Virus record (IMG/VR): IMGVR_UViG_3300038451_000147
Span: 1-64,000 of that record
Reading direction: 5' to 3' (one strand)
Source: a virus
DNA: 64,000 nt
Position numbers and translations under genes: made by a program. Position 1 is the stretch's first letter. Every line of letters begins with the position of its first letter. Below are positions 14,803 to 63,449 of this stretch, piece after piece. The notes below the pieces were generated by a model, which worked only from the letters and a program-made list of their open reading frames with translations, was not told the origin of the DNA and did not search any database.

Positions 14803-16683
14803 ATGTCTGCGGCACAAGATTCCAATAAGGACGAGAACGCTGTAGTTCGTGCATTACGAGCCACAAGGATACTCGGCCCAAGGCAAGCAGGTTCTCCAAG
14901 GAGCCTTGATAACCCTACCCTTTCTGCATCCTACAAGCCACCCTTAGAGACACAGATAGGGCAAATCGAGAGGGGTGAGGCTTGGTGGAGAGACTTCGCT
15001 TGGGAAGAGTATGCGACTAAAGAGTTGCCCGGACTTGGACTTGGGTTCACAGTCTATCCTTACGTTGCTGTATGGGAGAAGATATGGGGCGCAGTCCCAA
15101 CAGAAGACTACCAGAAGTATAAACAATACTACGTTCAGGAACCGTTCATTCGGGCCACCATAGACTTCCACACTCAGATGACCATCTCACAGGGTTACGA
15201 ATTAGACTATCCACTAGCGACTGTAGTTCAGGATGTCAAACAGTTTCTTGATAGACACGACTTCCTCAATCTACTCAAGATAATGGTGAAGGATATGCTA
15301 GTCTTCGGCAACTCCTACACAGAGGTTGTGAGAACATGGTATTGCCACGAAACTGGCCACGACCTTGAAGCCCTCAGAATTTCTTATGAGGTCGAAGGCA
15401 AGGACGGAAAGGATAGTTACTGGTGGACAGACAGAGTGGACATTGCGGCTAGGCATGACAAGATGTATCCCACCCACAAACTGGAGAATCCCTACGGAGA
15501 GATTACCAGATTCAAGCCTCTTGACCCCATGTATATGCGAGTGAGAAGGGATGCCTATGGAACCATCCTTGGATACGTCCAATACTATGTATTCCCTCTA
15601 GTCACCTTCCTAGCAGATGAGATGATTCATCTCCGCTATATGCCTACTTCTTGGACGTATGAATCGGTCTATGGTGTCTCGATGCTACGCCCCATCCTCT
15701 TCCATCAGGAACTCATGAAGAACTATGAGGAGACGATGGGAGCCATCATGAACGTCTTCCTCAAGCCCATGTTCCTTGTCCATGTCGGCATCAATAGTGC
15801 GGGTGTCGTAGGACAGGAAGTGACTACGGCGCAGTATCAATCAGTGAGGAAATACTTCCAGACTGCACAGCCCGGACAGTCTATTGTAGTAAGAGCCGCC
15901 ACCCCGATAGCGATAGAACCAATCAACCCACCCATTGACAGAATGCAGTCTACGTCCTTCTGGCTTCAATGGTTGCACAACATGAGAACCTACGCTCTCT
16001 CAGTGCCGAAGTTCTTCACCGACCCTGCTGGACTGAACAGAGCCACAGCCCAGACCGTAGAGAGAGGATACTTCACATTCATCAACAGCAACAGACAGTC
16101 CCTCAACAGCCAACTAGAGAGGACGGTGATGATACTGGTCATGAGGTCTCTGTATGGCAAAGTTGCCGATGAACTGATTCATGAGTATGACGTTCCGAAG
16201 TTCATCTGGAAGCCAGTCAAAGAGGATTCCTTAGAAGACAAGGCCAAGACCTATATGCCCCTGTATGCTAGTCGCATCCTAACTAGAGACGAAGTGAGAA
16301 AGGCACTCGGCTTCGAGCCTCTAGATGTGGACGAGTTGACGGAAGAGATAGGCGAATCCGTTCCACCAATGCAAGGCGCAGGTACAGGTGCATTTGGGAT
16401 GACCAAAGAAGGAAGTCCGACCTTCGGAAGCCCAGACCGTGAGATGGCAACAAGACCCTCTCCAATGGGAGCAGAACTTGGTCGAGAGGGGCAACCGCCA
16501 GAAGAGAGACTGCCAGAGTACGGAGAAGACATCTTCTCCAAGACAGAACAGGACGCTAGAATAGAGGAACTTGAAGAGGGCATAGAAGACCTCAAGAGAC
16601 GGTTCCTGAAGGAAGAGCCGTTCACAGAAGAGACGATTAAAGACGAGATAGAGAGGCTCAAGATGCACACCCCGAAGAAGTAG
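14803..16683 (+). CDS. Portal protein
   Basis: MLVFGNSYTEVVR, FKPLDPMYMRVRRD.YG.I.GYVQ, EMIHLRY, YGVSML, ILTRDEVRKALGFEPL; acidic C-terminal tail. Confidence 0.9.
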   Translation: MSAAQDSNKDENAVVRALRATRILGPRQAGSPRSLDNPTLSASYKPPLETQIGQIERGEAWWRDFAWEEYATKELPGLGLGFTVYPYVAVWEKIWGAVPTEDYQKYKQYYVQEPFIRATIDFHTQMTISQGYELDYPLATVVQDVKQFLDRHDFLNLLKIMVKDMLVFGNSYTEVVRTWYCHETGHDLEALRISYEVEGKDGKDSYWWTDRVDIAARHDKMYPTHKLENPYGEITRFKPLDPMYMRVRRDAYGTILGYVQYYVFPLVTFLADEMIHLRYMPTSWTYESVYGVSMLRPILFHQELMKNYEETMGAIMNVFLKPMFLVHVGINSAGVVGQEVTTAQYQSVRKYFQTAQPGQSIVVRAATPIAIEPINPPIDRMQSTSFWLQWLHNMRTYALSVPKFFTDPAGLNRATAQTVERGYFTFINSNRQSLNSQLERTVMILVMRSLYGKVADELIHEYDVPKFIWKPVKEDSLEDKAKTYMPLYASRILTRDEVRKALGFEPLDVDELTEEIGESVPPMQGAGTGAFGMTKEGSPTFGSPDREMATRPSPMGAELGREGQPPEERLPEYGEDIFSKTEQDARIEELEEGIEDLKRRFLKEEPFTEETIKDEIERLKMHTPKK

Positions 16684-29702: not shown

Positions 29703-30101
29703 ATGAGTGAAGACAAGTTCAATACAGAGAATTTCAAGGCCCAATTCCACAAGGACGTAGAGTTCGGAAAGAGTAGCGGTGGCAGTAGTGAGGGCTATAC
29801 CTACATAGCGAAACTCCTTCTTGTGCCAGTCACAGATGGCCGCAATAGACTCCTCTGGCTCGTCTTGGCTCCCTACGCCATAAGCATCCTGAAGATGAGT
29901 AGAGAGAGCGCGATAGATATGATAACGGAATACTTCAAAGCGTGTAACAAACTGAGTCCCTGTCCCAAAGTCCTCAGTCTGGTCGAGCAGTATGTGGACT
30001 ATGTGCCGACCATCGAAGGCGGTCTCAAGCCGCCCAAACAGGAAACACTTATGGCCAGCGACCCCGACTTATGGGCTATCATTTCTAAGGCGATAGCATG
30101 A
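29703..30101 (+). CDS. priX: Primase non-catalytic subunit PriX-like
   Basis: Y.YI.KLL..PV.DGR.RLL.LV...Y...I......A...I.EY signature. Confidence 0.7.
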   Translation: MSEDKFNTENFKAQFHKDVEFGKSSGGSSEGYTYIAKLLLVPVTDGRNRLLWLVLAPYAISILKMSRESAIDMITEYFKACNKLSPCPKVLSLVEQYVDYVPTIEGGLKPPKQETLMASDPDLWAIISKAIA

Positions 30102-32227
30102 TACCATTCGAGTCGGCCAACTACTTCACTGAGGTAGGGAAGGTCAAGATGAAGATATACAGGAACGGGGTGATTGAGGTAATAGACCCCACGCCTCTGC
30201 CCTATTGCTTCGCCCCGACCAAGTATGAGATACAGACGCAAGCCAAGATGGAAAGAACGGACATGAAGGCTTTCGACACAGGAGAGAGCGTGAAGAGATA
30301 CACCTTCAACGTGCCTCAGAACGTCAAGTTCTTCAGGAACTTTCAAGAGGCGAAGAGCGTGTCCGTCTATGAGGCCGACAAGAAGTATGTAGGAGTCTGG
30401 ATGCTAGACAACGACTTCGTATGTAGCGATTATGAGAATGAAGCATCGTGGGACACAGAAGAGGACGACTCAGGAGTGAAGCCCGACCCAGAGACGGCCA
30501 ACGTCCCGATAACAGCCATAGGCATCATCTACAAGGGGCAGAAGTATGCTTGGACAGGGGCAGAGAAGGGCATCTTACAGGGTGCGGTAGACTTCATCGG
30601 GGAGAACAAGATTGGTCTGCTGAAGGGTTGGAACAGCAAGTTCTGGGACGTTCCCTTCTTCATGAAGAGGATGGCCTACAGCAACGTGCGATTCGATTAC
30701 AGTTCGACTAGGTTCCTAGACCTCTCGCTGGCCTACCGTTTCATGGAAAAGAACTTCCGAAGCCAGTGGTCTCTAGAGAAGGTGGGCAAGAGGTTCTTCG
30801 CCATGAAGAAGCCCTTCACCAACATAAGGCTCAGTTCTTTGCCAGTAGAGCAACTGAAGGAGAGGGTGCTGTGGGATGCCGAAGTGACGGAGATGATAGA
30901 CACGGCCAAGAACCTGTTGACCAACGCGCCCAAGGATTATAGCAAAGTATGTATCCAGATGGCGAAGCAGGGCCACATCTTCCCAGACCAAATCTTCGGA
31001 GTCCATCCGGTCAAGAAGACCATCACAGTCACGCCAGTTCTCGACCAATACTTCCTGAAGTATGCACACAAACTAGGCTATGTATTGCCCTGCAAGAGTG
31101 GATACAACCAAAGACCCAAGTATACAGGAGCGTGGGTTGAGGTCTACGAGAGGGGCTTCTTCAACGATGTCCTTCAGTTCGATGTTGACTCTCTGTATCC
31201 CAACGTGATACTTGCATACAAACTGGCTCCGCAAGGCCGCTTCGACCTCATAGAACCTATAGTCCGAGACCTCTTGGCTGGCAAACGGAACGCCAAGGAC
31301 AAGGTAGAAAGATGGGCCTACAAGATTTCGGTCAACGCCCTCTATGGTATCTTCGCCAGCACCTACTACAGATTCAAGGCGGTAGAGGTCTCCGACCAGA
31401 CCTGCTTTCACGGAAGGGACATTCTCACTCACACGGCTGAGTTCCTGAGAAGTCTGGGCTATGTGGTCTACTATATGGACACAGACTCCATCTTCGTTCA
31501 TGGAACATGGGAAGAGAGGGAGACCATTCAGAATCTAATCAACGACTTCGTGAAGCGCACCTACAATCTTGACAACATCAAATTCGGATTGGAGAACCAC
31601 TGGAAAGTGATAGGCTTCCCAAGAAGCACGAAGGGTGAGAAAGCCAAAAAGAAGTATTACGGCATAGTGTATAGAGACAAGACAGGAGCAGAGGTCAACA
31701 GATTTGAAGAGGCTGGAATGGAGACGCTTCGTGGCGATTGGACTGAACTGGCCCAGATGGTTCAAGAGGCTCTGAAGAAGATGCAGGTCTCTGGGGTTCC
31801 TAAAGAGAGGATGCTGAACTTCTATGAGGTAACGAAGGTCAACCTCTACAAAGGGCAATATGACCCCTTGTTAGTGCTTGAGAAGCACATGAGTAAGGAT
31901 GTCTCTGAGTATGGTCTAGAGAAGATAGGGAAGAGTGGAAAGATGCACAAAGCAGGGATTCCACAGCACGTTAAGGCTTTCAAGAACGCCTTAGAGACGG
32001 GATGGGTTCCCAACGACATGGTGCAGTATGGTGTCGTCCAGTTCGTTATGACAAGAGGCGGGATACCGAAACTCACCAATCTAGTCAAGCCCGGAGAGAT
32101 AGACTACCAATGGTATGTGACGAAACAGATAGACCCCATCGTGTGGAGACTTGGTATTATCGAAGCTGTCACCAAGTATAAGAAGGAGAAGCCGACCAAG
32201 GAAAAGACGAAGCAGACGACCCTCTAA
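30098..32227 (+). CDS. polB: Family B DNA polymerase
   Basis: DTE and GWNSKFWD exonuclease motifs; DVDSLYPN, KISVNALYG and YMDTDS polymerase motifs. Confidence 0.97.
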   Translation: MIPFESANYFTEVGKVKMKIYRNGVIEVIDPTPLPYCFAPTKYEIQTQAKMERTDMKAFDTGESVKRYTFNVPQNVKFFRNFQEAKSVSVYEADKKYVGVWMLDNDFVCSDYENEASWDTEEDDSGVKPDPETANVPITAIGIIYKGQKYAWTGAEKGILQGAVDFIGENKIGLLKGWNSKFWDVPFFMKRMAYSNVRFDYSSTRFLDLSLAYRFMEKNFRSQWSLEKVGKRFFAMKKPFTNIRLSSLPVEQLKERVLWDAEVTEMIDTAKNLLTNAPKDYSKVCIQMAKQGHIFPDQIFGVHPVKKTITVTPVLDQYFLKYAHKLGYVLPCKSGYNQRPKYTGAWVEVYERGFFNDVLQFDVDSLYPNVILAYKLAPQGRFDLIEPIVRDLLAGKRNAKDKVERWAYKISVNALYGIFASTYYRFKAVEVSDQTCFHGRDILTHTAEFLRSLGYVVYYMDTDSIFVHGTWEERETIQNLINDFVKRTYNLDNIKFGLENHWKVIGFPRSTKGEKAKKKYYGIVYRDKTGAEVNRFEEAGMETLRGDWTELAQMVQEALKKMQVSGVPKERMLNFYEVTKVNLYKGQYDPLLVLEKHMSKDVSEYGLEKIGKSGKMHKAGIPQHVKAFKNALETGWVPNDMVQYGVVQFVMTRGGIPKLTNLVKPGEIDYQWYVTKQIDPIVWRLGIIEAVTKYKKEKPTKEKTKQTTL

Positions 32228-44686: not shown

Positions 44687-45010
44687 GCCAAAAAGAAGCA
44701 GTATACGCTGGCAGACTTCCCAGAACTTCGAGAGTATGTCACTGAGCAGATACGGCTTCATGAGGCGGCTCGGAAGGTTTCTCTTCATCCTCAAGAGTCT
44801 CAAGGACAGCAATCCAGTCTAGAAATGTGATGCTTCCGTCTGCTTCGGTTCGATAGTAGGGCGGTTCACCAAGCGAGAACGGTAAGAAAGTCAGTTCGCC
44901 TTTGGCCTCTATCCCTTCCTCTGGGATGTCACAAATGAGTCCGTAATAGACCACCTTTACTGCCTTTCCCATGAATGCTTATTAAGCACACAACCTATAT
45001 AAACATTGCA

Positions 45011-46564
45011 ATGAGTAGTTCCAATGAGCGTCTTCTGAAGAGTCTGGAACAGGAGTTCGACAAAATTAAGGCGAAGGAACCCAAAGACGTTACTCTAGAC
45101 CTCAGTGACCCTATGACATTTGTTGAGAACTACGTCAAACTTCCAGAGAAAGCTCCACCAGAGCAGAAGACTTGGTTCGAGCAACGGCCTTGGCTTTCAG
45201 AAATCTACAGAGATGGGAACAAGAGAATTGTTATAGTGAAGGGCCGACAGATGGAAGTCTCCGAGTATGCCGTGAATATGCTGTTCTATTGGGCCGCAAA
45301 ATGGCCGGGGAAGTATATCTACGCCTCTTCGTCAGGTGACAAGGCAGATGTCTTCAGCCATGACCGCTACCAGAAGCAACTCTCTCGAAGCCCTACGCTC
45401 CAAGCCCTTGTGCGAGACGAAGCCGTTAGAAGGGTGCAATATGCGAAGTCCGAAGTCTACTTTATGACAGCCTATGAAGACACCAAGACTCTGAGAAGCA
45501 TTGACGCTGATGGCATCATCCTTGATGAGTTCCAAGACTACAGGGCCAACGCCATCCCCATCGCTGAAGAGGGTCTGGCTCACAGTCAACTCAAGAGGCT
45601 TTGGGTGATAGGAACTCCCTATCTCACAGGAACCAACTTCTCTAGTAAGTGGGACGAAAGCACAAAGAAGGAGTGGAACAAAGAGAAACAGATGTGGGAA
45701 GTAACCAACCCTAAGTCAGATGGGATGTGGCAAGGCTATCACATCAGTCAGGAGATGGCAGTAGGGGTATGGCTTACCCCAGAGGAGTTCGAGTATAGGA
45801 GAGCACACAAGCCAGCACAGGAGTTTGCGAATGAGTGTCTAGGATTATTCTATGCTGGACTCGGAAGACCGACAGACTACGGTTACATGAGTTCACTCTT
45901 CAGCCCGTCTTTAATGAAGGGCCAATTCGGAAAGGGTGAACTTCTGATTTCGGGTATAGATTGGGGTATCTCCAAGTCTAATACGGTCTTCTACTTGATT
46001 CGACCAAGACTTCTAGAGTTGCCAGACCTCTATACAATAGACACTCTTTATGTTGAAAAGGTAGACAATCCAGATATAACCAAACAGATTGCAAGAATCG
46101 CGCAACTCCTCACTACCTTTCCCACTGTAATCAATGTGCTAGACTACGGCACTGGTTTCGTGCAAAATCAGGAACTCTACAAACAGTTCGGAAACCGAGT
46201 GATACAGATAGAATTAGGCAGTGGAAAACTAGGCAAGCCCATAACGGTAGAGCAAACCGCCTTTGGCCCGATAGCCAAAGTCAACAGAACGTGGGCTATA
46301 GACACGGCTATGGATTACGTCACTAGACCAGACAGATTCAGATTTTACAACGAGACAGACAAAGGCACAAAGGACTGGATTATCAGAGACTTTTTGGCTG
46401 AATACCCTGAAACGAGCAAAACCACCGAAAAGAAGATTTGGATTCACAGTTCCGATGCCACAGACGACTGCCTCATCGCCTTCGTGAATGCTATGATTGG
46501 CTTCCAACTTCAGAAGTCGGCTAGTATGCCGGAGCGCGTGGAAGATATGATTAGTTTCGTGTGA
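45011..46564 (+). CDS. terL: Terminase large subunit (start revised to ATG45011)
   Basis: IVIVKGRQMEVS (Walker A variant), IILDEFQD, IGTP, GIDWG and DDCLIA nuclease motifs. Confidence 0.9.
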   Translation: MSSSNERLLKSLEQEFDKIKAKEPKDVTLDLSDPMTFVENYVKLPEKAPPEQKTWFEQRPWLSEIYRDGNKRIVIVKGRQMEVSEYAVNMLFYWAAKWPGKYIYASSSGDKADVFSHDRYQKQLSRSPTLQALVRDEAVRRVQYAKSEVYFMTAYEDTKTLRSIDADGIILDEFQDYRANAIPIAEEGLAHSQLKRLWVIGTPYLTGTNFSSKWDESTKKEWNKEKQMWEVTNPKSDGMWQGYHISQEMAVGVWLTPEEFEYRRAHKPAQEFANECLGLFYAGLGRPTDYGYMSSLFSPSLMKGQFGKGELLISGIDWGISKSNTVFYLIRPRLLELPDLYTIDTLYVEKVDNPDITKQIARIAQLLTTFPTVINVLDYGTGFVQNQELYKQFGNRVIQIELGSGKLGKPITVEQTAFGPIAKVNRTWAIDTAMDYVTRPDRFRFYNETDKGTKDWIIRDFLAEYPETSKTTEKKIWIHSSDATDDCLIAFVNAMIGFQLQKSASMPERVEDMISFV

Positions 46565-58196: not shown

Positions 58197-58667
58197 TTAT
58201 TTCCATTTGATAACAAAGGGCAATGGCCCAAACTTCAACTCAAGATAATGCCTAGCATTACAAGGTCTGCAAGTTACTTCCAAATCTTCTATTGACCTCT
58301 CGCCAGAGAGGATTTTTTTGTAAAAGGTCGTAGTTTTACTGCTACCATTATGCTTGTGTTTGTAATCAGTCTTATTTCCGCCACCCTTCTTATGATTAAC
58401 CTCAAGCAATCGAATATCATCGCATCCACAATAGACACATTTTGGAACTTCAAAACCAGATACCTTCTGAAAGACCTTCAGACGATGCTCAAGATACCAC
58501 TTATGAAGACGTTCAGCATATCCTGTTTTTTCTCGCCAACTTTTGTTCTTTCTGTTCATCTCATCTCTATGCACTTCACGATAGTTTCTGTCATACTTAC
58601 ATTGGCAATCTTTACATCGGCTTTGTCTTGGAGCGTCTATCTCTTTTCCACAAGAACAATGAGGCAT
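58197..58667 (-). CDS. HNH-like endonuclease
   Basis: CVYCG...LLEVNHKKGGG...LEVTCRPCN. Confidence 0.75.
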   Translation of the reverse strand: MPHCSCGKEIDAPRQSRCKDCQCKYDRNYREVHRDEMNRKNKSWREKTGYAERLHKWYLEHRLKVFQKVSGFEVPKCVYCGCDDIRLLEVNHKKGGGNKTDYKHKHNGSSKTTTFYKKILSGERSIEDLEVTCRPCNARHYLELKFGPLPFVIKWK

Positions 58668-58693: not shown

Positions 58694-58924
58694 TTAACTC
58701 TTGTGACTGCTAACATCATTCACATACGCAAGAAGAAGAGTCATATGACGACAATGCCTATGAACCCAAAAACCCAGACAGTCGCACGACCCCACATTCG
58801 CTTCTCTACTGTAGAAGAGGTTGTGTGGTAGGTCTTCGGGATGAGACTTGGATTTGACTGTAGCGAACACTAAACCACCTTCATCTTGCAATATAGTTAC
58901 TTCAGACATTTCTCTTTCTCCCAT
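58694..58924 (-). CDS. SWIM-type Zn finger protein
   Basis: CDC........CRH. Confidence 0.65.
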   Translation of the reverse strand: MGEREMSEVTILQDEGGLVFATVKSKSHPEDLPHNLFYSREANVGSCDCLGFWVHRHCRHMTLLLAYVNDVSSHKS

Positions 58925-59432
58925 AATATTCTTGAAGCAAAGGTTCTACAATGCTTCTAATGTTACTCCAACGCCTACCCACTTTAACTTCATAAGCGAC
59001 TTGGCAATTCATACAACAGGTTTCCAAATCGTCTGTCTTCCTCTTTCCAGATACTATCATTCTATAAAGGTCGTTGCCTTCTAGTTTTAGAGCCTTTCTT
59101 TCAGAATTGCCGCCCCCGTTCTTATGGTTGATAGATAAAATCAAAGGATTTGCTTCACCACAATACACACACTTTGTCCCAACAATTCTCAACGCCTTGC
59201 TTTTTACTCTCCAATTATAATTGCCAGCATATTCGGGATGCTCTCGAAGATAATGTCTATGATAGCCTTCGTAAGACAAACCCTTTATCTGTCGCTTTCT
59301 TGCTGTCTCAATTGAGCATTTTTTACATTGTGTGCGATACCAAAATTTGCCAGTCTTTGTGTTCCTATTAACATAGAACTCAGAAAGAGGTCGCTCTACT
59401 CCACATTTAGTGCAAACCTTAGAAGTTATCAC
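58902..59432 (-). CDS. HNH-like endonuclease
   Basis: CTKCG..RPLSEFY...CKKC; CVYCG...LSINHKNGGG...LETCCMNC. Confidence 0.75.
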   Translation of the reverse strand: MITSKVCTKCGVERPLSEFYVNRNTKTGKFWYRTQCKKCSIETARKRQIKGLSYEGYHRHYLREHPEYAGNYNWRVKSKALRIVGTKCVYCGEANPLILSINHKNGGGNSERKALKLEGNDLYRMIVSGKRKTDDLETCCMNCQVAYEVKVGRRWSNIRSIVEPLLQEYYGRKRNV

Positions 59433-60522
59433 AGTAGCATTATAGCATTTCTACTATAAAAACATTTTGGTAGAAATCCTGTAGAACCTCTACCTCATTT
59501 GGACTTTGGTTGCTCTGGATAGCCAAGTTGCTTCCGCCTCTTCTCCCTCTCTTCCTTCGTGTCGTAAGGAAGTATTGTTCCCGACTCGAAGCCTATCTCA
59601 TTCTGCATTATGGCGGGAGCGTTGGTGACTGGCTCGATGCTTCCCAAGCCGCTTCCTGTTGAGTAGATGACGCATTCTGGTCTCATATGTGCCAAATCGT
59701 CCTCTTCAGTCAGGATAGTGACATGATGAGTTGTGCAGACTCTTTCTATTCCCATGCTACCACTTACTGGCTCTCTGCCCTATATAAAGATTCGTTGAAA
59801 CCTTTGACCAATGCTTCAAGTCTTCTCTTGCCTACCCTCTGATAATCAGTCTCTAAATCTTCAAGTGCTCTCGTCACTTCAAGAATGGTGTAGTTTATAG
59901 CTTTGTGCGCCCAAAACTCGCACTCGGATTCAGGAACGGGTTTGCTTAGATTGTCTGTCTCTGTCATCCCATTGATTGAATCCAAGTAATCCATATAGGC
60001 TTGATTGCTTGCATCAAGACACTTCTGGCAGAAGTTCATTGCTTCATCCCTCTGAATACTGCTACAATCCACCAGACGGCGGCTTGAAGCATCAACGTGG
60101 CTGTAGTTATGAGGAGTCCTTCTTCGTAGAAACATGGAACCATGAACGTGAGCAAGGCCGAACACGGAATCGAAGTCTTTCGTGGAACTTGGGCGTTCTT
60201 ATTCCATGCAGTAGGCATCGTAGTAAGTGCTAATCCGAATGACGCTATTGCTATCAGTAAATCCCATATCAAAGAGACCCCACCCTCTCGATACCGCCAA
60301 AGTCTTGCATTAGAAGGTAAGTGCCTTCTGGTGTAAGTGGCCACGCCTTTGATTCGTAGACAAGTTTGTATGAGTCTTGGTCTGGGTCGTAGACAACACC
60401 AACAAGTTTCGCGTCAGAAGGGAGATGGGACTTAATCCTGTAAACCCCATTCAACTTGAACATCTCTTGCATTCCTTCCCTAGTCACCAAAAGGAACTTC
60501 TTGCCAGTCATGGGTTGAGGCA

Positions 60523-61233
60523 TCATTCTTCCTCACCCTCTTCCTCTTTCTCTGGCATCTTGGTCTCGAAGTCTTCGATGGTAAGAGGCTCCTTTGTCTC
60601 ATACTTGCAGATGTCTTCCATCTTCATCTCCTCTAGCCAGCCACTATGGAGTAGGATAGACCGGGCCAGAAGGTAGTAAACGGTGGCGATGGCCTTGGCT
60701 CCCACGTTGTTAGCCGGAATAGCGATATCCACATCCTCAAAGGTGGCGTTGGTGTTGCAGATGGCTATGACAGGGATGCCTATGCTAGAGGCTTCATACA
60801 TGGCTCGTCTGTCTCCTCTCATGGCTTCCCCTATCTTCTGTGGGACTCCATTAGTAGGGTCTGAGACCACCAGACAGTCAGCATCCACATAACTCTTGAT
60901 TTGAGAGTTGGTGAGGCTTCCCGCAACGAGACGGTGCATAACTATTGGGATGAGGGTAGCGGCATTGAAAGACTTGAGGGCATTGTCGAATCTGGGGTCT
61001 GTAGCATAGAACAAGGGTCTCATTGCAGGGTCTTGTCCATGTCGGCTTATGTGTTTGCCCACCACATCCAGTTTGTTCAGAATGGCGTTGATGTCCATCA
61101 ATGGATTGCCAGCCGGAGAAACCTCAGAGACATAGATGGCCATGTCTTTGGTGACACCGCCCTTTACCCCGATGTGGATGCCAGTGGCTCTGAGAGCGTC
61201 CTCTGTCAGCATCTTGGGAAGGATGAGACTCAT
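60523..61233 (-). CDS. rps2: Archaeal-type 30S ribosomal protein uS2 homolog
   Basis: GIHIG, TKDM, RLVAGSLTN, VVSDP, EASSIGIPVIAICNTN, VDIAIPANNVGAKAI...YYLLARSIL. Confidence 0.9.
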   Translation of the reverse strand: MSLILPKMLTEDALRATGIHIGVKGGVTKDMAIYVSEVSPAGNPLMDINAILNKLDVVGKHISRHGQDPAMRPLFYATDPRFDNALKSFNAATLIPIVMHRLVAGSLTNSQIKSYVDADCLVVSDPTNGVPQKIGEAMRGDRRAMYEASSIGIPVIAICNTNATFEDVDIAIPANNVGAKAIATVYYLLARSILLHSGWLEEMKMEDICKYETKEPLTIEDFETKMPEKEEEGEEE

Positions 61234-62435
61234 GCAAAACTCTCCTCTACCGCCCTCACCAACTCGTCCAGAACGGCTTCTGGATTGTTGATGTGGGCCT
61301 TGGCAGACCCCGCTTCTCTCAAACCGCCACCTTCCATGATGGTTGGATTGGCCGTTCTGAAGACCTTTCCGATGTGAATCGGACTATCCGCTTGGCCGTT
61401 CCTTCCTGAGACATGGATACCATACTTAGGAATGGTGTTGATGACGAACCAAGGCTTCTTGTTCTGGCCACCCAACTTGTTCGCCATTGCCGAGCCGATG
61501 TTCCATTCGTGGCTGATGACGGAGACTCCGTAGTTTCCAGTGACCATCGGGAACTCCAACTTCACGTTATTCTTCCAGTCCTCTGAGACCTTCTTGAACT
61601 CCGGCTTATACTTGATGTGGTTCATGGCCATCATCTGAGTATTGGGATTCTTCCCATCTGTAAAGAGAGGAGATGCCAAACTCCCCTTGGTTATCAGAGT
61701 ATAGAGTTCCAACCAGTTGGGTATCTGCTCCAACTCCTTCATGGCCTCATAACAGAAAGGTGGTGCGGCATTGAAGACCATCCTACGTTGGACATGGAGC
61801 AACTGAGCATAGAAGTCTATGAGACCCCAATCATAGCCTAAATTCGCTTGTGTCGCTAAAAGCCCCTTGAGGCCAGCGTGTCTTGAAAGGATGTCCTGAT
61901 AGATTGGGCCACCCTCTTGGCTGTCGCTTGCTACATCGCCTCTGAGTCCGAGCAAGGCCCACTTCTCCATGTTGGCGATTGGCCATTCCAATCTCTTGGC
62001 CCACTTGTAGACGATTCCAGTGGTGCAGTTCTCAGTAGTTGATTCATAGACAAAGGTGGTGTTACCAACAGGTTCGGTCTTGTAACTAGACAAAAGTGCT
62101 TTGTATGTTGCGTAGTCTTCTGGGGTCTCCACTTCTGAGTCGGGCGGATGGTTGTCCCAAAGCACTACATTGATACCAGACTGCATAAGACTCATGGCCT
62201 TTGAGAGCATATCTAGGCCGCTTCCCAAGTCTAGAAGGTAAGCGGTTTCTGGCTTCAGAGCCTTGATTGCCGCTACATTCGCATCCGTCACCCCAAAAGT
62301 ATCCCAATCTTGCCAGATGATGGTGTGCTTCGAGTTGGGCTTCGTTTGGGTGAGTGCATTGTGGACTATCCTAGTGGCGCACATCCCATCGGTATCTTCA
62401 TCGGTCATAATGACCGTATCCTTGTTCTCGCTCAC
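61230..62435 (-). CDS. DHH-family phosphoesterase (RecJ/GAN-like)
   Basis: DEDTDG, LLDLG, DNH (DHH variant), SGR, GGG..EAG (DHHA1). Confidence 0.75.
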   Translation of the reverse strand: MSENKDTVIMTDEDTDGMCATRIVHNALTQTKPNSKHTIIWQDWDTFGVTDANVAAIKALKPETAYLLDLGSGLDMLSKAMSLMQSGINVVLWDNHPPDSEVETPEDYATYKALLSSYKTEPVGNTTFVYESTTENCTTGIVYKWAKRLEWPIANMEKWALLGLRGDVASDSQEGGPIYQDILSRHAGLKGLLATQANLGYDWGLIDFYAQLLHVQRRMVFNAAPPFCYEAMKELEQIPNWLELYTLITKGSLASPLFTDGKNPNTQMMAMNHIKYKPEFKKVSEDWKNNVKLEFPMVTGNYGVSVISHEWNIGSAMANKLGGQNKKPWFVINTIPKYGIHVSGRNGQADSPIHIGKVFRTANPTIMEGGGLREAGSAKAHINNPEAVLDELVRAVEESFA

Positions 62436-62687
62436 GCCTTTTCACCCGCTACAGCCCCGACCCCAATCTTGAGACCGAAACCGTTTTCGAGTTTGAACAT
62501 GACAGCATGGTTCACTGTCATCTCTTCTGGCATCTCAACAGTCTTCGAGAACTTCTCTCTGGTGCGCTCGTCTGTCACAGTTAGCGCAAGAGTTCCATCT
62601 TTGCTTATCTTGTAGGGGCCGAAATCTCCTTCCCACAATGTTTCTGTTTTCATGGCCTACCCATTCGTTTGAAGGTATTTAAGGATT

Positions 62688-63344
62688 CTAGACAGACTTC
62701 CTTACCCCTTTCATGAAGGTCTCTAGTTTCTTGTGGACTTCCTCTAGAACGATGACATCCTGCTTGTTGTGTTGAACGATGTATCGCATCGAGTTTGGAT
62801 TGACCATCGCCGTCTTCCAGATTGTGGGTTCTAGGGGTGTCTTCTCTTCCACATGGAGCAAAGAGGCAACAGAAGCCAGTCTGTTGGAGTGCAATTGGAG
62901 TTTGGCCTTGACCAGATAGTAGAGGTCAACGTGCTGAACCTCACCATAGGCCGGGAAGTCTAGACCCCAATCCAAGGCGCGAGTCCTTATCATGGGAAGG
63001 TCGAAGCCAGTCCCATAGTAGGTGTAGAGAACGTCATATTGTCTCATCGCGTCTATACACGCTTGGACTGTCCTCTTGTCAAAAGTCTCGGCAAGCGGCT
63101 CATCTGGGACTCTCATGCAGTCCCAAACCATCTCCCTACTGTCTCTAGTCTTGATGGCCCAACTGTAGATAATGTTGAAGTCTCCCTGAAGACCGTTGGC
63201 TTCAATATCTAGATAGCCAACCTTCATGTCCTTATTCATATAGTCATCAAGGAACTTCTTCCAACAGTTCGGGTGTCCTACGCCAGTGTGCGCGTGTTCG
63301 CACTTCCACAGCGCGGGACTGATTAGTGGTTTCTTACCTTTCAT
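62688..63344 (-). CDS. DEDD/RNase H-like (YprB-type) exonuclease
   Basis: LDIEA, YYGTGFDLPMIR, HVDLY, HNKQDV. Confidence 0.85.
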   Translation of the reverse strand: MKGKKPLISPALWKCEHAHTGVGHPNCWKKFLDDYMNKDMKVGYLDIEANGLQGDFNIIYSWAIKTRDSREMVWDCMRVPDEPLAETFDKRTVQACIDAMRQYDVLYTYYGTGFDLPMIRTRALDWGLDFPAYGEVQHVDLYYLVKAKLQLHSNRLASVASLLHVEEKTPLEPTIWKTAMVNPNSMRYIVQHNKQDVIVLEEVHKKLETFMKGVRKSV

Positions 63345-63449
63345 AGCATACCCACCATCGCAATGGTATTTAAGGATTCGCTCATTTTCGCGTCTACTAG
63401 ATGTGTATACGCGAACAGTCTACTTAAGCGTTGTCGTTGATAAAGTTGT

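Follow-up and report, generated by a model that had tools for sequence, protein, structure and literature searches.

Ribosomal proteins encoded by viruses are known mostly as small, loosely bound bacterial ones, and for archaeal viruses the literature we searched reports only eL21 and bL19. In the portions of the sources available to us, the phage-encoded proteins comprise bS21, bL12, bL9, bL31, bL33, bS6, uS9, uS15, bS1 and uS4 (PMC6375957; PMC7162821), and Al-Shayeb et al. 2020 (PMC7162821) list S4, S1, S21 and L7/L12. Phage bS21 and bL12 enter E. coli ribosomes (PMC6375957), and the extensions of phage bS21 have been proposed to favour phage mRNAs (PMC7162821). For archaeal viruses, Liu et al. 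2021 (PMC8651126) described eL21 (L21e) in Hafunaviridae as the first ribosomal protein, and a 2023 paper on Bathyarchaeia viruses (PMC10541130), which named L21e as the sole earlier detection in archaeal viruses, added bL19; uS2 is mentioned in neither paper. PF00318 was among the search profiles of Mizuno et al. 2019 (PMC6375957), and uS2 is absent both from the main text and from the hits available to us.

A viral uS2 appears to be unreported: we found no such report in the literature searched, where no paper pairs 'uS2' with 'archaeal viruses', and a tblastn search of 50,697 GenBank phage records returned no uS2 homologue. A reading of the locus made from its sequence alone had known of no uS2 among viral ribosomal proteins, and uS2 is indeed missing from the published lists in this literature, as far as the available parts of the sources go. 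Here we describe a uS2 gene in a window of 64,000 nucleotides, the first 64 kb of a 105,335-bp IMG/VR record.

The window encodes a full-length archaeal-type uS2

The gene was characterized by several independent means:

60523..61233 (-): viral uS2 gene, 236 aa (PF00318, TIGR01012, phmmer against the PDB, AF2 model, Foldseek, dN/dS 0.13-0.14)

The ORF at 60523-61233 (-) starts with ATG and contains no internal stops. Its product scored 49.5 bits against Pfam PF00318 (E 4e-13), exceeding the gathering threshold of 26.1, in a match that covers residues 141-193 only, the Pfam model being mostly bacterial. The NCBIfam model TIGR01012 (uS2_euk_arch) was matched over positions 6-183 of 196 (E 1.7e-34), and a phmmer search of the PDB matched archaeal uS2 chains to residues 9-193 (E 3e-24). 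An AlphaFold2 (AF2) model, for which 53 sequences served as input, had a pLDDT of 92.1 and a pTM of 0.89. Foldseek superposed this model on the archaeal uS2 structures 1vi5, 9fhl_B and 9qf4, from A. fulgidus, S. solfataricus and P. furiosus, with a target TM of 0.89-0.92, an rmsd of ~2.2-2.3 A and E 1e-18. Because the profile matches, the PDB chains and the AF2 superposition agree, we conclude that the window protein is a full-length archaeal-type uS2 with a predicted uS2 alpha/beta fold. The motifs invariant in uS2 were also kept in the viral copy (G18, G22, M31, R101, G105, N109, D125-P126, P173, N175-N176 and F222).

The protein is nonetheless divergent. It scored 119 bits against TIGR01012, under the equivalog cut-off of 211.5 bits, which every viral uS2 missed (83-175 bits), whereas all five cellular copies tested, including those nearest to viral uS2, reached 218-277 bits. 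The core domain of viral uS2 has a median of 19 lysines and arginines versus 24 in cellular uS2, and a pI of 7.9 versus 9.4. PHROGs contained no family for the window protein. The sequence-only reading had called the protein a full-length, divergent archaeal-type uS2 with an insertion of about 14 aa after the SDP motif, and the TIGR01012 match, the PDB chains and the AF2 model confirmed this description, the insertion being T127-G140.

The uS2 gene resides in a complete viral genome

The IMG/VR record is a complete virus of 105,335 bp with direct terminal repeats, in which we found a repeat of 82 bp. Besides an HK97-type capsid protein, the genome encodes the following hallmark proteins within the window:

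14803..16683 (+): portal protein (PF04860, phrog_12; 54% identical to the portal of L089, another uS2-bearing contig)
30098..32227 (+): family B DNA polymerase, PolB (PF00136, E 7e-21)
44975..46564 (+): large terminase subunit (PF05876; tblastn to an annotated phage TerL, 26.8% identity, E 1e-38)

Pfam searches also identified an archaeal-type replication and repair set consisting of PriX, an SSB-like OB fold, an RPA OB domain, an ERCC4 nuclease, an RNase H, a SET-domain protein and an RlaP-type nucleotidyltransferase. The replication and repair gene set suggests that viral replication may be largely autonomous. Among 136 ORFs of at least 75 aa, the size range that the scan took in, no ribosomal or translation family other than uS2 was found at a Pfam E-value of 1e-5 or less, which agrees with the earlier observation that no other ribosomal genes lie nearby. 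No tRNA genes were found in the 105,335-bp genome.

We considered whether the gene could be an artefact, either because the assembly had wrongly joined cellular DNA to a viral contig or because a piece of a cellular genome or plasmid had been miscalled as viral. The record is a metagenome assembly, and the automatic JGI annotation labels homologues 'small subunit ribosomal protein S2', both of which would fit such an origin. Against it, near-identical sequence was present in peat and wetland metagenomes of four studies, with no RNA run among the matches listed, and in one peat run the exact contigs 59645-60792 and 60767-61352 bridged both ends of the uS2 gene. A relative's 3.4-kb contig, ~87% identical and from a different study, carried uS2 and the adjoining RecJ-like gene together. 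A search of viral databases, which the sequence-only reading had proposed, found uS2 in the divergent contig L089 and in four further IMG/VR contigs (L085-L088; 37.5, 105.7, 91.4 and 106.9 kb) that are colinear with the genome over 20 kb. Each colinear contig places uS2 between the RecJ-like gene, on its upstream side, and the gene for an 86-aa protein, so that five IMG/VR contigs share this gene order, and uS2 is coupled to viral ORFs by overlaps. Further, the genome is closed by its terminal repeat and carries capsid, portal and terminase genes with no other housekeeping genes, and in a scan of species-representative genomes, capped at 600 stretches, viral-type uS2 was found in none of the best 80 loci that were kept, all of which were at most 37% identical. 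Because independent contigs bridge both junctions and four other viruses share the gene order, we conclude that viral uS2 is not an assembly artefact, which settles the chimerism that the sequence-only reading had named as a refutation; we regard an artefact of either kind as extremely improbable.

In the four colinear contigs uS2 was 79, 66, 61 and 53% identical to the window copy, conserved as much as its neighbours or more. From the two pairs with unsaturated dS, uS2 dN/dS was 0.139 and 0.132, compared with 0.15-0.18 for the RecJ-like gene and 0.08 for an exonuclease gene in the same module. Purifying selection keeps viral uS2, as it does its neighbours. We consider it very probable that the gene is a functional, selectively kept viral uS2 paralogue.

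uS2 is an internal cistron of a presumed viral operon

The surroundings of the gene contain the following features, listed in the direction of transcription:

62688..63344 (-): RNase H-fold 3'-5' exonuclease-like gene of the same module (PF13482, E 1e-16; syntenic in L085-L088)
62676..62688 (-): GAATCCTTAAATA box, a presumed archaeal TATA-type promoter, whose TTAAATA ends 22 nt before the ATG of the 73-aa ORF
62432..62653 (-): 73-aa ORF, first cistron of the presumed operon (4-nt overlaps; conserved in L085)
61230..62435 (-): RecJ-like DHH phosphoesterase gene (PF01368, E 4e-5; NF053576 RecJ_archaeal, E 7e-13)
61242..61247 (-): GAGGAG, a Shine-Dalgarno (SD)-like motif 8 nt before the uS2 ATG, within the RecJ-like gene (read from the sequence)
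60269..60526 (-): 85-aa ORF, whose ATGATG start contains the uS2 stop TGA
59495..59755 (-): 86-aa protein with invariant C7, H10, H23 and C28 (alignment of relatives)

Four ORFs, in the order 73-aa ORF, RecJ-like gene, uS2 and 85-aa ORF, make up a presumed operon, and overlaps of 4 nt join them all. The overlaps of uS2 with viral ORFs on both sides, reported earlier, are an ATGA in which the RecJ-like stop meets the uS2 start, and a TGA within ATGATG downstream. The RecJ-like gene lies upstream of uS2 in all of L085-L088, and directly so in L085, L086 and L088. The recurring adjacency of a DHH gene and uS2 hints at a functional link between the two.

Downstream of uS2, the 85-aa ORF is poorly conserved, being 35% identical in L085 and unmatched at E 1e-8 in L086-L088. 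A relative of higher abundance, ~85-90% identical and reaching a depth of ~190, accompanies this virus in the same peat and wetland runs (X1-X4; contigs over positions 59774-60542 of the window). In one contig, 651 other bases replace the stretch just downstream of uS2, so the small ORFs that separate uS2 from the 86-aa gene form a variable cassette. The 86-aa Cys/His protein follows uS2 in all relatives and is encoded immediately downstream of it in L087 and L088. Its homologues lie at L087:10723-10974, L088:10672-10950 and L089:10907-11266, the last adjoining uS2 in a distant 94-kb virus. The conserved cysteines and histidines form a possible zinc site, and the protein may be a zinc-binding partner or a regulator. 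A predicted complex of viral uS2 with this protein scored 0.00, which is evidence neither way. The protein has a basic tail and matched no Pfam family. Two further ORFs on the same strand, 58197-58667 (156 aa) and 58902-59432 (176 aa), are cysteine-rich and have a C-x-YCG ... NHK-x-GGG-N motif in common; several CxxC pairs are likewise shared, neither ORF has a Pfam match at E 0.01, and the two may be HNH-like nucleases or zinc-finger paralogues.

The module also contains a recurring upstream motif. GAATC(C/T)TTAAATA, with one variable position (C/T), ends 22 nt before the ATG of a 213-aa gene, the exonuclease gene and the 73-aa ORF; copies lie at 62676-62688 and 63367-63379 (-), with the third beyond the window at ~64114-64126 of the genome. 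We infer that this motif fits archaeal TATA promoters with leaderless first cistrons. The motif has the look of an archaeal promoter that serves one class of genes and whose upstream, BRE-like part is fixed, and a TTAAATA box also stands at a similar distance before the 156-aa ORF at 58197-58667. Across the virus, 18% of ORFs have a TATA-like box ~22 nt before their ATG. The internal starts of the operon, those of the RecJ-like gene, uS2 and the 85-aa ORF, follow GGTGA or GAGGAG, which are complementary to the 3' end of archaeal 16S rRNA, and no TATA-like box of its own was found upstream of the uS2 gene. Because the first cistron looks leaderless and the internal cistrons are preceded by SD motifs, the virus probably uses both leaderless and SD-type or coupled initiation, and uS2 would depend on the latter. 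This agrees with the sequence-only reading, which took leaderless transcripts to be implied by this genome's promoters; within the operon the first cistron alone looks leaderless. In a rough count, SD-like motifs in the virus were not separable from those in candidate host or Nitrososphaerota loci, the counts of SD-like and TATA-like motifs having used longest-ORF starts and being noisy.

Viral uS2 proteins form a clade next to Nitrososphaerota uS2

Two large protein collections yielded ~18 insert-bearing proteins that are 48-88% identical, along with more distant ones that are ~30-45% identical. In a careful maximum-likelihood tree of 80 sequences, with which a quick tree of 121 rows concurs, the core viral clade had a support of 100/99 and all insert-bearing uS2 proteins a support of 99/95. 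The same tree separated viral and Nitrososphaerota uS2 from all other archaea with 100/100, and the comparison with archaeal uS2 that had been proposed from the sequence thus joins the insert-bearing clade to Nitrososphaerota. The nearest cellular uS2 proteins come from Nitrososphaerota metagenome-assembled genomes (MAGs), at 36-43% identity depending on the method, and five Nitrososphaerota-type genomes (G001-G005) each contain one uS2, which is insert-free.

Three divergent insert-bearing branches could be checked, and all three are viral: the window clade, L089 and L101. The P0049 branch corresponds to the 94-kb IMG/VR contig L089, whose portal and TerL are 54% and 38% identical to those of the window virus. 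A P0044-type uS2 lies on the 14.5-kb contig L101, which also encodes an HK97 capsid, a cement protein and an adjacent DHH gene. That gene (L101:3543-4763) adjoins a uS2 that is ~31% identical to the window protein. In L089, a Cas4-like PD-(D/E)XK nuclease gene (L089:9221-9949) adjoins uS2, and a 675-aa protein with LAGLIDADG domains (L089:16707-18734) may be an intein or a homing endonuclease. A search of IMG/VR recovered neither P0039, which comes from a 161.9-kb contig, nor P0044, and the metagenome collection did not yield P0039. Because all insert-bearing uS2 proteins form one clade and the checkable branches are all viral, the simplest history that fits would be a single capture long ago from a Nitrososphaerota-type archaeon, after which uS2 evolved for an extended period within a virus lineage. 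A DNA search of window positions 44-64 kb against 301 genomes of the class of G001, a Nitrososphaerota MAG, in which two candidates were scored per genome, returned two weak matches, one of them inside uS2, and no spacer-like or other host link.

A clade-specific insertion lies on a rebuilt face of the protein

The most conspicuous difference from cellular uS2 is the insertion:

60814..60855 (-): T127-G140, 14 aa inserted behind the SDP motif in the viral clade only; an ordered loop in the model

No counterpart of T127-G140 was present in any cellular uS2 aligned, E. coli S2 included. The first half of the insertion, TNG(V/I)PxK(I)G, was 80-100% conserved among 21 viral copies, and the insertion as a whole had a conservation of 0.69 compared with 0.71 for the uS2 fold. 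In the AF2 model the insertion is ordered, with a mean pLDDT of 97 for residues 121-130 and 94 for residues 131-140. A second, variable extra stretch is found near residues 199-215.

We then compared the columns that are conserved in cellular uS2, defined as the 53 columns with at least 85% identity among 91 cellular archaeal proteins. Of these, 30 were kept in at least 80% of viral copies, 11 had been swapped for another residue fixed in the clade, and the rest were variable. Clade-fixed replacements include L43N, R79D, Y81R, P85A, Q143R, N163A, R179A and W187Y. Two highly conserved cellular basic residues are thereby gone (R79 to D and R179 to A), and their loss could weaken rRNA binding by viral uS2. 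Loops that follow the parallel strands, together with the first turns of the next helices, held 8 of the 11 replaced columns versus 8 of the 30 kept ones (Fisher p 0.01, for segments picked post hoc, once the data had been seen). The sheet edge that bears the insertion is the edge where the clade-fixed substitutions cluster.

In E. coli, bS1 docks on uS2 via H18 and a pocket of D188, N203, D204 and D205 (PMC10123108). These five residues align with viral V23, N160, N175, N176 and V177, and in the alignment the insertion separates the positions that match E. coli H168 and E169. The rebuilt viral face therefore aligns with, and would be homologous to, the solvent-exposed docking surface of the bacterial protein. 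[quoted passage not shown]

A proposed role for viral uS2 and its alternatives

The best explanation, to which we give about even chances, is that a virus-adapted uS2 paralogue takes the uS2 site of the host 30S subunit and presents a new surface by the mRNA exit. An ancestor of tailed archaeal viruses of ~90-107 kb probably captured uS2 once from a Nitrososphaerota-type archaeon, and the viruses have since retained it under purifying selection. As the third cistron of a presumed nucleic-acid-metabolism operon, uS2 would be expressed from its SD-preceded, overlap-coupled start. The protein keeps its fold and most of the universally conserved residues, and one face is rebuilt by the 14-aa loop and the fixed substitutions. 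Binding at this face would differ as a result: it might draw in viral mRNA or a viral factor, or keep a host factor away, and the ribosomes of the infected cell would in this way be re-fitted for the virus. The more far-reaching claim is that a family of tailed archaeal viruses builds virus-specialised ribosomes, with viral uS2 replacing the host protein at a site that recruits a viral mRNA or factor or blocks a host shut-down factor; we consider this doubtful. Candidates for a viral factor at the site are the adjacent small Cys/His protein and the DHH protein.

Two alternatives also place viral uS2 in the ribosome. The sequence-only reading had suggested that viral uS2, once exchanged into host 30S subunits, could shift translation in favour of leaderless transcripts of the virus, as in uS2-deficient E. 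coli. The location of uS2 at the end of the SD-duplex chamber would suit such a role, as would the TATA-like boxes ~22 nt before ATG, three of them in the uS2 module, which imply leaderless first cistrons. E. coli ribosomes without bS1 and uS2 favour leaderless mRNA (PMC10491246). However, the bacterial effect arises in ribosomes that lack both proteins and is not that of a variant uS2, whereas the virus adds a uS2. Archaea are not known to have bS1. Further, uS2 is an internal cistron behind a GAGGAG or GGTGA motif, as are the RecJ-like gene and the 85-aa ORF, and because uS2 is itself SD-preceded, a switch against SD and toward leaderless initiation would penalise its own translation. The SD-like motif frequencies of the virus were also not distinct from those of Nitrososphaerota loci, and we judge a leaderless bias to be quite improbable. 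Viral uS2 could instead simply do the job of host uS2 during host shut-off, with the specificity of the ribosome unchanged. uS2 is a late-binding, peripheral ribosomal protein, which would favour such a supply, as would the fold, the 30 of 53 conserved columns that are kept, and purifying selection. A like-for-like copy should resemble that of the host, however, and the nearest cellular uS2 shares only 36-43% identity with the viral clade, which in addition fails an equivalog cut-off that the tested cellular copies pass, and carries a conserved insertion along with clade-fixed replacements at sites that are at least 85% conserved. One of ~60 ribosomal proteins would also not sustain assembly, and so we regard plain supply as unlikely.

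A different possibility is that the uS2 fold has been re-used away from the ribosome, as a decoy or adaptor for a host assembly, hibernation or defence factor, or in nucleic-acid metabolism together with the DHH/RecJ-like nuclease. The lower positive charge and the loss of two conserved basic residues point in this direction, and TIGR01012 scores are very low for an orthologue. The gene also lies in a replication and nuclease module, with a DHH gene adjoining uS2 in the window clade and L101 and a small Cys/His protein following uS2 even in L089, and in bacteria uS2 contributes to the contacts that hibernating or collided ribosomes make with one another. On the other hand, universally invariant residues, among them R101, G105 and N109 as well as P173, N175 and N176, are kept across viral lineages that are ~30% identical, and this retention is most simply explained by ancestral contacts with rRNA or the ribosome. 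Archaeal uS2 has no known off-ribosome partner, the hibernation-factor literature we searched yielded no archaeal factor contacting uS2, and adjacency of viral genes is weak evidence. We therefore treat an off-ribosome role as rather unlikely, and continue with entry of viral uS2 into the host 30S subunit as the preferred reading.

Comparison with known systems

A large, universal core protein of the small subunit is resident in a virus lineage whose branches are now ~30% identical to each other, and it appears to have gained a conserved loop, while its surface beside the mRNA exit was rebuilt. Should viral uS2 enter ribosomes, nature would provide an example of a virus tailoring a TACK-type archaeal ribosome, the closest prokaryotic model of the eukaryotic 40S subunit, and would give a concrete handle on the idea of specialised ribosomes. 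Viral uS2 is also a phylogenetic marker by which one family of uncultured viruses from peat and wetland can be tied to hosts of the Nitrososphaerota type.

Cellular archaeal uS2 is like the viral copy in fold (TM ~0.9) and in its invariant motifs, and Nitrososphaerota uS2 shares with it the IEDFETK motif and an acidic tail. The viral protein differs from cellular uS2 in its identity of 36-43%, the 14-aa insertion, the stretch at ~199-215, the 11 clade-fixed replacements and the score below cut-off. uS2 is single copy in each cellular genome tested, and the viral gene lies in a viral nuclease and replication operon instead of among ribosomal genes. With respect to the bS1-docking pocket of E. 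coli uS2, the rebuilt viral face aligns with it and would resemble a docking platform on the mRNA exit side, as a positional analogy only, and the acidic residues D188, D204 and D205 correspond to N, N and V in viral uS2.

Phage ribosomal proteins resemble viral uS2 in being host-derived genes that have become fixed in viruses under purifying selection, and replacement of the host protein has been proposed for them and shown for bS21 and bL12. They belong to bacterial viruses and are mostly small and loosely bound, in contrast to a universal core protein of 236 aa and of archaeal type, which in addition has a long history of diversification within one lineage of viruses. The eL21 and bL19 viruses are closer in kind, because they too are tailed archaeal viruses with a single ribosomal protein homologue; their proteins both belong to the large subunit and their hosts are others, whereas uS2 is a protein of the small subunit.
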